Below, one piece after another: positions 41,997-46,337 of a stretch of DNA of 46,337 bases; the first letter of the stretch is position 1; each line of letters opens with the position of its first letter. Both the position numbers and the translations under genes were made by a program. Location of the stretch: positions 1-46,337 of the IMG/VR virus record IMGVR_UViG_2740892428_000001, one strand, 5' to 3'. The notes under the pieces were generated by a model. The model was not told where the DNA came from, made no database searches, and saw nothing but the letters and a program-made list of their open reading frames with translations. The DNA comes from a virus (Duplodnaviria; Heunggongvirae; Uroviricota; Caudoviricetes).

Positions 41997-42616
41997 TGAC
42001 CACATTTACCGATAAAGAACTGATTAAAGAAATCAAAGAGCGTATCAGCAGCCTAGAGGTTCGAGACGATATTGAGCGCCGTGCTTATGAAATTGCTCTG
42101 GCATCGCTGGAAGAGGAGCCGGTGGCATGGCTACATTCAGACAATGGCTTAGGTATTCCAGCAATAACCAGGAGTAAAAACATTGCTGACAGTTGGTTAT
42201 CAAAGGGCTGGTATGTTCAGCCGCTATATATAGCCAAGCCAGTGCCGGTGGTGCCAGATGCTCGTCCGTCTTTAAATAATGGCATAGTCGGTTTTGATGA
42301 AGGCTGGAACGCCTGCCGCGCCACCATGCTTCACGGTGTCAAACCTGTAAGCCAGACTTACAAGTTGAACAAGCTGTCTGGCAACTCTCCGGTAACTCCG
42401 GATGGTTGGATAAGCTGTAGTGAGCGAATGCCGAACGATAAACAATATGTTTGGTGTTGGGGTAAGTCTTACGGCTGGACTGAGTGCGATACCTTCGAAG
42501 GGTATTACGATTGTTCGAGAAACAAATGGTGGGCAGTTACTGACAATGGGGAAGAACCGGCATCGAAAGTAACCCACTGGATGCCGCTACCGGAACCGAC
42601 GCAGGAGGTGAAGTAA
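41996..42616 (+). CDS. DUF551-like protein (YfdT-like)
   Basis: 206 aa; C-terminal DGWISCSERMP...VTHWMPLPEP resembles DUF551; stop overlaps the next start (TAATG). Confidence 0.55.
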   Translation: MTTFTDKELIKEIKERISSLEVRDDIERRAYEIALASLEEEPVAWLHSDNGLGIPAITRSKNIADSWLSKGWYVQPLYIAKPVPVVPDARPSLNNGIVGFDEGWNACRATMLHGVKPVSQTYKLNKLSGNSPVTPDGWISCSERMPNDKQYVWCWGKSYGWTECDTFEGYYDCSRNKWWAVTDNGEEPASKVTHWMPLPEPTQEVK

Positions 42617-42810
42617 TGAACAACTTAATGACAACTAAACAAGTCGCCGACTTCTGTGGCGTTTCAGTATCGACAGTTCTTCGCTGGAACAGCGTAAACC
42701 GGAGAACTGGCCAGAAATACAGACCTGATTTTCCAGATCCTGATATTAAATCATGCCCAAATAAATGGGCGTCACGCAAGATTTACAGGTTTGCAGGAGT
42801 TATTGAATGA
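42616..42810 (+). CDS. AlpA/Xis-like excisionase or small HTH regulator
   Basis: 64 aa; MTTKQVADFCGVSVSTVLRWNS resembles the AlpA-family HTH; position just upstream of the integrase module. Confidence 0.6.
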   Translation: MNNLMTTKQVADFCGVSVSTVLRWNSVNRRTGQKYRPDFPDPDIKSCPNKWASRKIYRFAGVIE

Positions 42811-43350
42811 CGTATGTGAACAGACACGTCTATGGCACGGTCAGCGTCTGTCTGAGCGATACAGGCACGGACGTTGCTATCCACAAGCATTAATTATCAG
42901 GAAACTGGGACCGCTCCCCAAGCATGATGTATTGAAACGAAGACATTTACACAATGATAGAAAAAATACTAAAATAATGATTCAACTCAAAGAGTTGATG
43001 TACATAAAATGCCTCACCGGCATAGGTGAACATTTTCATGGGTGGGGAAAAACATGATGTGGACCACACTTCCCCCTCTAAAAAGAGGGGAAAGAGTATG
43101 GTTTTGTTGTACACTAAAGGCCATATGGTTTTTTATTATGTTTGGATAAGATAAATGAATGTAATAGCATTTAATGAAATAGAATCTAGCATCGCCGCCA
43201 ATGATCAGGTTGATTCTATCTGCATTGAATTAACAACATTTAATCAAGATAATGTCATTTCATTTGAAAGTAAAAAGAAAAATAAAGAAATTCTTGATGC
43301 ATTTTTTGAAATAATAAATACTGATATAGTTTTCGACTAGGTAATTAGCA

Positions 43351-44946
43351 ATGGCTGAAGCAGCAAAAAAAACTCCACAAAAGCTGAATGAAAAAAAAGG
43401 CTCAACATCAGCATCATCACTTGAGATTGTGAATTCACGACAATCAAAAGATATTTATCTTGGATTGTGTGGATATGTTGGATGTGGCATGAGAACGATA
43501 AACAAAATTATCGAAGAGATATCCAAAGAATGGGGGTATAATGTTGTACACATCCGCATAAGTGCGCTTATGGAAAACCCATTATATTTTGAGCCAGCAG
43601 CACTGGAGGTATCCGAAAGCACACAAGTTAATAGACATTTAAAACTCCAGGATATTGCCAATAAGCTTCGTAAACATTACAAAAAAAATGAGTTGCTTGC
43701 AGAAGCTGCTATTGCAGCAATCGCAGCAGAGAAAAATAATATTGATTATAATAATGATGAATATAAAGGTACTGTCTTCATCATTGATCAATTCAAAAGG
43801 CCGGAAGAAATAGAGTTATTCAGAGTTATATATCAGCATAATTTCTATTTATTAGGAGTTTTGCGCGATTTAGATTACCGAATTCCGAATCTCATTGCTG
43901 ACGAATCGACAAAGGACGACCTTCATTTAATTATCAATATTGATAATAAATCCTCTGATCCGTATGGACAAAGAACCGGGGAAACCATTCTTGATTCAGA
44001 TTTTTTTATTAAAAATAACTTCAGCCAAAAAAGTGAATTAAAGAAGAAGATTGATCGGTTTTTCGGTCTTATTCATGGCAAAAATGGTTTAACACCAACT
44101 TTTAACGAGAAAGGTATGTATGCTGCCTTTTCAACATCATTACAATCAGCTTGTTTATCACGTCAAGTAGGGGCTGCACTGTTTGATGATGAAGGGAATT
44201 TGCTTGCCGTGGGTAAGAACGACGTACCTAAAGCTGGTGGCGGGTTGTATAGCAGTGATGATTTTGATAACGATCATCGATGCGTTCACAAAAGTGGTAA
44301 GTGTTATAATGATGCAAACAAGCTAAAAATTAAAGACCGTATAAAAAGCATATTATCAACCGAAGTAAGAAATGTATTAGGTATTTCCGCAGGACAAACT
44401 GTTGCCGATATTAATATAACACGACTTCTAAACAAATTAGATAATATTGCAGAAGGCATTTACAAAGACAGCAAAATATCAAGTGTAATGGAGTATTCCA
44501 GATCAATTCATGCTGAAATGGACGTCATTACATCAATGGCTAGAAAACAAAACGGCGATACTAAAGATAAAATTCTTTTTACGACAACCTATCCCTGCCA
44601 CAACTGTGCAAGGCATATTGTCGCAGCTGGAATAAAAAAAGTAGTATATATAGAGCCATTTGATAAAAGCCTTGCTCTTGATCTGCATAATGATGCAATA
44701 ACAAAGAACGAAGAATCATCCAAAGTAATATTTTGTGATTTTGAGGGGGTATCACCCCGCCGCTACCATAAATTTTTCAGACCAACGGATGAACGTAAAG
44801 ATGATAAAACAGGGACTGCAAATAAATTTAATGCTCGCTACAAAAATCATATAGATGTTCAATATCTTGATGATTATAGAAAGTATGAGACTGTTGTAGC
44901 TAAGAAATTTATAAACGAGATTGCTAAACCAGAGTCTCAGCCATAA
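43351..44946 (+). CDS. kinase-like / deoxycytidylate (CMP/dCMP-type) deaminase fusion; candidate AvcD/DCD-family nucleotide-depleting anti-phage protein
   Basis: 531 aa. N-terminal P-loop-like segment GLCGYVGCGMRT (aa 38-49) and hhhhD segment VFIIDQF; C-terminal deaminase fold with SACLSRQVGAALFD, zinc-binding H387-A-E389 and P415-C416-H-N-C419. Confidence 0.7.
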   Translation: MAEAAKKTPQKLNEKKGSTSASSLEIVNSRQSKDIYLGLCGYVGCGMRTINKIIEEISKEWGYNVVHIRISALMENPLYFEPAALEVSESTQVNRHLKLQDIANKLRKHYKKNELLAEAAIAAIAAEKNNIDYNNDEYKGTVFIIDQFKRPEEIELFRVIYQHNFYLLGVLRDLDYRIPNLIADESTKDDLHLIINIDNKSSDPYGQRTGETILDSDFFIKNNFSQKSELKKKIDRFFGLIHGKNGLTPTFNEKGMYAAFSTSLQSACLSRQVGAALFDDEGNLLAVGKNDVPKAGGGLYSSDDFDNDHRCVHKSGKCYNDANKLKIKDRIKSILSTEVRNVLGISAGQTVADINITRLLNKLDNIAEGIYKDSKISSVMEYSRSIHAEMDVITSMARKQNGDTKDKILFTTTYPCHNCARHIVAAGIKKVVYIEPFDKSLALDLHNDAITKNEESSKVIFCDFEGVSPRRYHKFFRPTDERKDDKTGTANKFNARYKNHIDVQYLDDYRKYETVVAKKFINEIAKPESQP

Positions 44947-44952
44947 CTGTTT

Positions 44953-44993
44953 CCACTCCTTATTTCTGTAAGGATAAGGAGTGGTATTTTTAT
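44953..44993 (+). terminator. intrinsic terminator after the deaminase gene
   Basis: 11-bp stem CCACTCCTTAT/ATAAGGAGTGG with a 10-nt loop, followed by TATTTTTAT. Confidence 0.6.
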
Positions 44994-45098
44994 AAGTATA
45001 ATGACTGCCTCTTCATAAATCAGCAAATCGAAATATCAGCAACCAGTTAATTATAATCCAAGAATCATTACTATTTTCTTACTCTGTATGTCCATTCA

Positions 45099-46337
45099 TT
45101 ATTCAATAGGCTGTCTGTTGGAACCTAAATTAGTGTAAGTAAGAATCGAATCAACCCTATCCCACCATGCCTGATAGGCTTTACGCTGTTCTTCTAGATA
45201 ATCACTCTTATCATAAACTTGCCATACCCCTGGCAGTTTATGACCGAGCATTATTTCAGCAATATGAGGCGCAGTAAGATCAGAAAAGTTTGTTCGTGCT
45301 GTTCGTCTCAAATCATGAAGAGACCAATGAGGAAATTGATACCCCAAACGCCGCCATGCGTACTGCATTAAATTGTAAGGCAGCGACTGCAATGATGTCC
45401 GACCAACTGGCTCCTTGCTTCCTTCCTTGGTAAAAAGCATATCGGAACCGTTGTTCATAGAGATAACGTATTTTATAAGCTCTTCAACCGGTTCAATAAT
45501 GGGGCGCTTTAGCGGTTCGCCTGTTATATCACCTGTCTTATGTCGTTCTGGCGGTACAGTCCATACCTTATTAATGAAATCAAAATCATCCACCCTGGCA
45601 GTAATCAGCTCTGAACTACGACAGCCGAAATGCAGCAATAGTTTAATGAAGGCCCGGTATTTGGGAACCATTCGAGAACCATCGATCGCAGCATAAAGAA
45701 TTTTAATTTCATCGTGTGTCAGAAACCGTTTCTTCTGACCTTTACGGATATCCATATCTTTACCCGTGATGTCCGACAGCGGGCGAGTTTCAATAAACTT
45801 TCGCTTATACGCCCAGACATGGGCCTGCTTTGCGTTAATTAGCAATCGGTCTGCTATTGCCGGAGTCTTAGTGCTAAGAGGCTCCAGGACCTCTAACCAA
45901 TCATGCAATGTAGCTGCATCATGAGGGATACTCCCGATTTTAGAGAACAGATGCAGTTCAAATGAGCGGAGTATCTGCTCAGAACCTTTTTTATTTTTTA
46001 CACAATATGCTTCATACCAGGCACGGATCACAGACTCTACCGTCATGGCTTCAGTAGCTTTGCGTTTTTCTGCCTGCCTGACCAATCGTGGATTGCGGTT
46101 TGACTCAAGTTCACCACGAAGACGGATAACTTCTTCTCTGGCCTCTTTTAATCCAGTTGCCGGGTAAGTTCCGATATCAAGTCGCTCGCCTTTCCCTGCC
46201 CATTGATAACGATATTGGAACACTACGCGACCTTTCGGTGATACTCTGACAGACAGACCATCACGATCTGATTTAACCAAAACCTTATCGCGTTCCTTTC
46301 CAACGACTGAACGCAACCACGCATCAGACAGCGCCAT
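45099..46337 (-). CDS. int: tyrosine integrase (P4-like family); 5' end may continue beyond the window
   Basis: 412-aa ORF running to the window edge; N-terminal arm-binding-like region (GLSVRVSPKGRVVFQYRYQWAGKGERLDIGTYP) and C-terminal catalytic region with R...HxLRR...Y (HDLRRTARTN...GH...Y). Confidence 0.85.
   Translation of the reverse strand: MALSDAWLRSVVGKERDKVLVKSDRDGLSVRVSPKGRVVFQYRYQWAGKGERLDIGTYPATGLKEAREEVIRLRGELESNRNPRLVRQAEKRKATEAMTVESVIRAWYEAYCVKNKKGSEQILRSFELHLFSKIGSIPHDAATLHDWLEVLEPLSTKTPAIADRLLINAKQAHVWAYKRKFIETRPLSDITGKDMDIRKGQKKRFLTHDEIKILYAAIDGSRMVPKYRAFIKLLLHFGCRSSELITARVDDFDFINKVWTVPPERHKTGDITGEPLKRPIIEPVEELIKYVISMNNGSDMLFTKEGSKEPVGRTSLQSLPYNLMQYAWRRLGYQFPHWSLHDLRRTARTNFSDLTAPHIAEIMLGHKLPGVWQVYDKSDYLEEQRKAYQAWWDRVDSILTYTNLGSNRQPIE

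Follow-up and report, generated by a model that had tools for sequence, protein, structure and literature searches.

Does the DNA directly ahead of an AvcD-type deaminase gene in an E. coli prophage specify an antitoxin-like RNA, a small protein, or both? AvcID serves as the model case for a deaminase toxin restrained by a small RNA (sRNA). AvcI, originally called DifV, came to light as a small ORF directly 5′ of avcD on the same strand, and start-to-stop and RBS-less versions of V. cholerae AvcI, in constructs that used Ptac with a non-native RBS, still inhibited AvcD, from which the authors concluded that V. cholerae AvcI is an RNA of 152–174 nt (preprint 10.1101/2021.03.31.437871). In that study independence of translation was demonstrated for V. 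cholerae only; the upstream ORFs of V. parahaemolyticus, P. mirabilis and ETEC each suppressed their own AvcD on co-expression, those of P. mirabilis and ETEC being active solely on their own AvcD, and the ETEC family member worked in trans, from a second plasmid (preprint 10.1101/2021.03.31.437871). AvcD mutants insensitive to AvcI carry changes at surface residues (E123K, A126T, K201R, K511E and Q514R in V. cholerae numbering; preprint 10.1101/2021.03.31.437871). AvcI has since been described as an sRNA that binds AvcD (PMC10511110; PMC12409362), transcription shut-off leads to loss of AvcI and activation of AvcD (PMC10511110), and a 2025 review still terms it a non-coding RNA (PMC12409362).

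The window analyzed here, a stretch of 46,337 nt, forms the right end of an E. coli prophage (yfdP–yfdS genes, an xis-like ORF and an integrase) integrated beside yjjG. The original prediction had regarded the AT-rich interval 43094–43350, between a hairpin and the deaminase gene, as a possible antitoxin-like RNA that happened to contain a 61-codon ORF. Its coordinates for the ORF, the hairpin, the spacer and the AT-rich interval all held on re-examination, as did the base composition, with a GC content of 27.2% in the interval vs. 49.8% in the whole window.

Anatomy of the deaminase module

The deaminase gene (43351–44946, plus strand) encodes 531 aa. Over residues 10–529 its product matches the PADLOC dCTPase model with an E-value of 2.7e-164, it scores 464.5 bits against the NCBIfam equivalog NF041025 (cutoff 400) and it matches Pfam PF00383 with an E-value of 7e-15; RefSeq names it 'anti-phage dCTP deaminase'. 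On these profile matches, membership of the AvcD/anti-phage dCTP deaminase family is firm. As in AvcID toxins, an N-terminal P-loop kinase-like part is joined to a C-terminal zinc cytidine/dCMP deaminase domain, and a locus of ~150–220 nt lies directly 5′ on the same strand.

The small ORF occupies 43155–43340 on the plus strand (ATG at 43155, TAG at 43338–43340, 61 codons) and, as had been reported, stops 10 nt ahead of the deaminase ATG; it is the only ORF of at least 30 aa on either strand within 43094–43350. Its GC content is 26.3%, that of the deaminase gene 35.3%. The lack of a convincing RBS was likewise borne out, the Shine–Dalgarno (SD) sequence in the window being weak and consisting of just GGA at 43144–43146, 8 nt ahead of the ATG. 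The 10-nt spacer (43341–43350, plus strand; TAGGTAAT) is invariant in 12 relatives and, together with the stop codon, forms the deaminase SD AGGT at 43339–43342. In all modules of the window's kind, referred to below as type A, the gap between ORF and deaminase is 9–12 nt. A terminator scan found none between the two genes and placed a strong intrinsic terminator (13-bp stem and T tail) at 44953–44994 on the plus strand, where it closes the module.

The module as a mobile cassette

Leader, small ORF, deaminase and terminator travel as one cassette of ~2.1 kb through unrelated contexts. Its edges, mapped on deaminase relatives of about 84–86% DNA identity in such contexts, start at window positions 42866–43021 depending on the locus (about 42866–42941 in most relatives) and end at 44933–45092. 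The original prediction had let the interval begin after the hairpin; as a unit it does not begin there, since the hairpin and up to ~150–200 nt ahead of it belong to the same cassette. Neighbors of the cassette in relatives include integrases or integrase fragments, a P4-like primase, Ogr/Psu, GmrSD, EcoRII or BamHI, tra genes and a phage portal gene. Taken together, anatomy, co-inheritance and the homology to an experimentally tested locus described below make it very probable that this interval holds the partner locus, in the AvcI position, of an AvcID module.

In the window the cassette lies between the integrase gene (45099–46337, minus strand) and an xis-like ORF at 42616–42810, whose 64-aa HTH product has weak HTH_17 and MerR matches under the Pfam cutoffs. 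This excisionase-like ORF adjoins DUF551 genes; it is unannotated in an identical RefSeq genome and in relatives is represented by a partial 'DNA-binding protein' pseudogene. The same DNA recurs, 98.6–100% identical, in the complete E. coli genomes listed, of which 41 cover at least 80% of the query. At 11 loci the cassette was seen as cargo in mobile elements of many kinds, among them the int/xis junction of a prophage, a satellite of P4 type with its primase, an Ogr/Psu region of P2 type, defence islands beside GmrSD, EcoRII, BamHI or GAPS4, tra regions of conjugative elements, an IncI plasmid and Mob plasmids of 4.6–5.8 kb.

The conserved leader and predicted promoters

A leader at 42976–43154 (plus strand) could be aligned over 12 relatives in unrelated contexts. 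Immediately ahead of it, at the 5′ edge of the cassette, lies the best promoter-like match of the region, the predicted sigma-70 promoter P1 (42946–42975, plus strand; TTTACA, 18-nt spacer, TAAAAT; 10 of 12 positions). Its hexamers are still promoter-like in close relatives, and it is absent from loci L039 and L006, in which homology starts at 43021. The leader contains a hairpin with arms TTCCCCCTCT and AGAGGGGAA (43070–43079/43084–43092, plus strand), a −10-like TACACT at 43110–43115 (plus strand), of which TA...T is invariant over 8 diverse modules, and the palindrome CCATATGG at 43121–43128 (plus strand). As TACACT is kept in addition to the P1 candidate, transcription could start from either, and the two are best viewed as competing predicted promoters. 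We also considered the leader hairpin as a canonical intrinsic terminator and rejected it: it was not called by the scan, because the T-run starts about 8 nt past the stem.

Leader bases 43101–43154 changed at 0.51 steps per site, vs. 1.01 at the third codon positions of the deaminase gene, and the 115 nt ahead of the ORF, which include the leader hairpin, are conserved about as well as the ORF itself. RNA 42983–43154 folds better than 200 of 200 shuffled sequences (z = −3.6); covariation amounts to a single compensatory pair (RNAalifold, close clade), which leaves the structure unproven. The leader may serve as a promoter/operator, an attenuator or a structured 5′ UTR.

Several minor features of the region were noted. 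The G-rich stretches 43044–43049 and 43085–43092 can each pair with the C-rich 43070–43079. Inside the small ORF, at 43225–43253, TTGAAT and GATAAT are separated by a 17-nt spacer (9 of 12 promoter positions), and this element could give the deaminase a transcript of its own; its −35, invariant in 13 relatives, overlaps the 3′ arm of a hairpin described below (H1), so that a promoter role could not be told apart from the coding and hairpin constraints. On the minus strand, 42997–43118 resembles the Rfam family isrC (a Salmonella island-encoded sRNA) at 20.7 bits, under the gathering threshold of 39 (E 0.63), and this overlap with the leader is probably due to chance.

Coding evidence for the 61-codon ORF

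The predicted peptide is acidic (12 D+E vs. 4 K+R), and 61-aa homologues of 75–98% identity were found in Serratia, Budvicia, Yersinia, Klebsiella, Phytobacter, Proteus, Salmonella, Morganella, Enterobacter and Cronobacter. It matches PHROG 9966, a family of unknown function, with an E-value of 1.9e-43, residues 1–61 aligning with profile positions 1–61. The ORF is annotated in some RefSeq genomes (WP_040091656.1) and omitted by PGAP in others. An exhaustive HMM search of 1.84 billion representative proteins returned 9 matches, so the family is narrow. A scan of genome contigs with a single deaminase gave 2 loci, and scans of viral and metagenome sequences with the peptide yielded, for the most part, identical copies from E. 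coli. Searches of Pfam, NCBIfam, PADLOC and PDB profiles found no relatives of the peptide, and no antitoxin or DNA-binding domain was recognizable in it with Pfam or NCBIfam. AlphaFold2 predicted one C-terminal helix (residues 37–55) with a pLDDT of 52, too poor for a fold search.

Could such an ORF have arisen by chance in an AT-rich promoter or 5′ UTR spacer, leaving regulatory DNA alone as the function of the interval? The low GC content and the omission of the ORF by PGAP in some genomes would fit that explanation. At loci reached through deaminases of 82%, 75%, 65% and 62% identity, however, the corresponding ORFs have 61, 61, 63 and 61 codons, respectively, and end 9–12 nt ahead of the deaminase, so that a length of 61–63 codons is kept across clades whose DNA no longer aligns. 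All 14 loci compared, 13 of them fetched via the deaminase alone, carry an ATG ORF of 56–67 codons that ends 9–77 nt ahead of the deaminase. When the 300 nt upstream in the window were shuffled, an ATG ORF of at least 55 codons within 100 nt of the deaminase start appeared in 26 of 2000 sequences, and shuffles of each locus put the chance at about 0.5–2%, i.e. about 1% per locus against an ORF in 14 of 14. Together with the purifying selection described next, these comparative data contradict a chance ORF, to which we assign next to no probability.

Within the frame of the small ORF pN/pS was 0.19–0.54, with a bootstrap P(≥1) of at most 0.008 in 10 of 10 pairs, and in the shifted frames it was 0.44–3.7, mostly 0.6–1.5, all of these values coming from a purpose-written Nei–Gojobori script rather than a likelihood model. 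Since part of the close-clade set was gathered via called ORFs, it carries an ascertainment bias, of which the deeper comparisons are free. In three deep pairs pS of the ORF vs. that of the deaminase was 0.75/0.79, 0.51/0.78 and 0.83/0.85. Codons 27–61 alone, the C-terminal half that lies outside H1, gave a pN/pS of 0.25–0.42, and in the last 20 codons of 5 clades the summed pairwise differences at the first, second and third codon positions were 64/28/99. Type-A clades share the C-terminal motif (K/R)E(T/I)(L/I)(D/E/N)(A/S)F..I...(D/E)I(I/V)(F/L)D-stop, and relatives have an SD-like AGGA, GAGGA or AGGAG at the place of the GGA in the window. This comparative evidence makes it quite likely that the 61-codon frame is read as a protein.

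A hairpin maintained within the ORF

The 5′ half of the ORF can also form a hairpin, H1 (43169–43230, plus strand), in which arms at 43169–43186 and 43212–43230, i.e. nt 15–32 and 58–76 of the ORF, make 18 bp with one bulge around a 25-nt loop. Among the close-clade sequences, the ORF changed at 0.62 steps per site in its third codon positions vs. 1.01 for the deaminase, and the suppression is concentrated in the H1 arms, with 0.25 steps per site vs. 1.11 in the 25-nt loop and 0.69 in the rest of the ORF. With the close clade as sole input, RNAalifold gave 0 compensatory pairs in the ORF region; H1, derived from that clade, became testable through the addition of two loci, L050 and L075. In each of them 15 of 18 positions are paired, vs. 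3–12 of 18 in slid controls, and across the alignment of 13 sequences pairing is kept in 96% of cells, vs. 31–45% in slid controls. Both partners were exchanged in four pairs (3 in L050 and 1 in L075), the three changes of L050 falling within one 4-bp block (AAUG/CAUU to GACA/UGUC), and 0 of 500 shuffles reached the compensatory count or the covariation score. As judged from this covariation, a local RNA structure is maintained within the 5′ half of the ORF.

The original prediction of an antitoxin-like RNA thus stands in part. Position, strand and size fit an avcI locus, and H1 adds one RNA feature; the treatment of the ORF as incidental does not agree with its purifying selection, its kept length and position and the SD-like sequences of relatives. 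Likeness to a known AvcI RNA could not be substantiated, as no nucleotide (blastn) or RNA-family (Rfam) similarity was detectable: the window had no blastn match to the upstream regions of V. cholerae, V. parahaemolyticus or ETEC, and an Rfam scan of 42000–46337 at E-values up to 10 returned sub-threshold noise and no AvcI-like family.

We therefore weighed a purely non-coding AvcI-type sRNA, made from 43155–43340 and perhaps including the leader, that would bind and inhibit the deaminase, with the ORF untranslated or its peptide irrelevant. In its favor are the sufficiency of V. cholerae AvcI RNA without translation (preprint 10.1101/2021.03.31.437871), the description of AvcI as an sRNA that binds AvcD (PMC10511110; PMC12409362), the compensatory changes and suppressed synonymous sites of the H1 arms, and the weak SD of the window. 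Three-base periodicity and a pN/pS far under 1, which are confined to the ORF frame and extend beyond H1, are difficult to reconcile with it, as are synonymous sites that diverge as fast as those of the deaminase in 2 of 3 deep comparisons. Neither an Rfam match nor tandem repeats of the ToxI kind were found, 42850–43450 holding just short two-copy direct matches. The ORF RNA also lacks unusual folding stability (z = −0.26 and +0.95), a weak point, since genuine AvcI RNAs are likewise unremarkable (z = −0.78 and −0.51) and folding z-scores are for that reason uninformative. Two further objections arise from the tested ETEC locus considered below: likeness to it survives solely at the peptide level, and no H1-like inverted repeat was seen in ETEC-type ORFs. 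We consider the purely non-coding sRNA unlikely and a weaker reading than that of a gene that is most likely translated and possibly dual-function.

Comparison with known AvcID and other toxin–antitoxin systems

The closest tested counterpart is the AvcID of ETEC H10407 plasmid p58 (NC_017723.1; 99.5% identical to our locus L076), in which a 61-codon ORF ends 12 nt before a deaminase of 61–62% identity to that of the window. When the window clade and the ETEC clade were aligned independently and the two alignments compared with hhalign, the small ORFs proved to encode homologous peptides (probability 97.4%, E 9.6e-12), although the peptides share only ~22% identity and the DNA of leader and ORF cannot be aligned by blastn, whereas the deaminase genes align. 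Unlike the window, ETEC has a strong SD (AGGAG) and no visible H1-like hairpin, and its carrier is a small mobilizable plasmid instead of a prophage.

Similarity to the Vibrio systems is one of family and layout. The V. cholerae VSP-1 and V. parahaemolyticus deaminases belong to the same family (44–45% identity) and are likewise preceded, directly and on the same strand, by a locus of ~170–190 nt with a 56–58-codon ORF and no terminator between the two genes; the expected logic, loss of a labile partner upon phage-induced shut-off, would also be shared. In contrast to the ORF of the window, which is acidic, ends ...DIVFD and lies 10 nt from the deaminase, those of Vibrio encode basic peptides that end ...KLGW and lie 76–77 nt from avcD. 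Small ORFs thus fall into type A (window and ETEC; acidic, ...EIIFD end) and type B (V. cholerae, V. parahaemolyticus, Photobacterium, Klebsiella and IncI plasmids; basic, ...KLxW end). A profile comparison of the two types with hhalign was not significant (probability 4%), and we do not claim a common origin.

The type-B ORFs were examined at L040:2253–2423 (V. cholerae), L079:1248–1424 (V. parahaemolyticus), L083:444–614, L084:440–613, L082:481–666 and L080:1264–1446. They have 56–61 codons, are basic and end ...K(L/I)xW-stop. Between the V. cholerae and V. parahaemolyticus avcI ORFs pN/pS is 0.54 (P = 0.006), the last 15 codons of six clades differ by 111/82/140 at the three codon positions, an invariant Ala uses all four of its codons, and the terminal Trp is followed by TAG, TAA or TGA. 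This coding-like pattern is in tension with a purely non-coding AvcI. A coding signature is, at the same time, not proof of a peptide inhibitor, because V. cholerae AvcI works untranslated and its ORF is coding-like as well; and since the signature coexists with a proven RNA function in at least one system, a dual-function locus is the most economical reading. That AvcI loci are small protein genes family-wide, with a peptide that has its own role in deaminase control, is a tentative generalization that we put at somewhat below even chances; if it applies, the peptide might itself be the antitoxin of the Enterobacterales systems, or might work alongside the RNA as a further layer such as a sensor or stabilizer.

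The comparison of both types also bears on a role of the ORF in cis, as an upstream leader cistron whose translation would govern how well the deaminase mRNA is translated or how stable it is, e.g. by coupling across the 10-nt gap, with no inhibition in trans. The tight stop-to-start gap of 9–12 nt in type A, the invariance of the spacer and SD and the absence of a terminator between the genes would suit such a cistron. A role in cis would select for an open frame rather than for a particular amino-acid sequence, yet the motif KE(T/I)L(D/E/N)AF..I...(D/E)I(I/V)(F/L)D is kept across clades; moreover, the ETEC family member acts in trans and type-B modules retain the ORF at gaps of 34–77 nt. A cistron acting solely in cis therefore appears improbable to us.

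With respect to the established classes of toxin–antitoxin systems, the module resembles type II in that a small acidic protein gene comes first, the toxin follows directly downstream and both are co-inherited as a mobile pair; it differs in that the peptide has no recognizable DNA-binding or antitoxin domain, and neutralization by a protein is putative here. The literature places AvcID in type III (ToxIN-like), in which an RNA antitoxin inhibits a protein toxin, but the antitoxin region of the window is free of tandem repeats and the toxin is not an endoribonuclease. Dual-function sRNAs such as SgrS/SgrT and RNAIII/hld combine an RNA function and a translated small ORF on one short transcript. 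In the window, unlike in these, the structured part lies inside the coding sequence, and both functions are putative.

Proposed function of the module

The best explanation, which we hold to be reasonably likely, is a two-gene AvcID-type operon with a translated, possibly dual-function small partner gene. The interval would form the front half of this anti-phage operon, which sits as cargo between the xis and int genes and would be laid out as promoter, conserved leader, 61-codon gene, 10 nt, dCTP deaminase and terminator. By precedent, the small gene would be transcribed together with the deaminase as one operon, and it would be translated; its product, be it the acidic peptide, the structured 5′ half of the mRNA or both, would hold the deaminase inactive post-translationally, the inhibition in trans again being proposed from precedent. 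Upon shut-off of host expression by a phage, this short-lived product would vanish (its lability and the trigger are also taken from known systems), and the freed deaminase, by turning dCTP/dCMP into dUTP/dUMP, would starve the synthesis of phage DNA.

As to the inhibitor, we see a not quite even chance that it is the peptide or both peptide and RNA, a lesser but still substantial one that it is the RNA with the peptide serving a separate function, and leave the rest to other possibilities. For type A the balance tilts somewhat toward a functional peptide, because conservation between the window and the ETEC locus that was tested is confined to the peptide.

The kind of system, AvcID, is already known, and the small ORF locus would gain interest if its peptide proves functional. 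Were the locus a translated small gene with an embedded hairpin, the identity of the inhibitor and the trigger mechanism would need re-examination, as a labile RNA, a labile peptide or the two together could be what is lost when the system is triggered. The toxin–antitoxin type would then need review at least for Enterobacterales systems, including the ETEC one used experimentally, and with a role for the peptide AvcID would be a dual RNA/protein or type II-like system, not a pure type III. For annotation, PGAP is inconsistent on the small ORF, and defence-finder models treat the system as a single gene.

Allelic variation at the deaminase start

Two A8 tracts lie near the start of the deaminase gene, the first (43365–43372) forming codons 5–8 and the second at 43391–43398. 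The first is A7 in 12 of 49 E. coli genomes, which shifts the deaminase frame past codon 7 and leads PGAP to call a later start. The A7 genomes are probably clonal and represent few independent events. In 11 of the 12, IS1 is inserted at 43100–43108, between the leader hairpin and the small ORF, and in the twelfth IS421 cuts the 3′ end. These alleles may reflect inactivation of the toxin after disruption of the leader, or slipped-strand switching.
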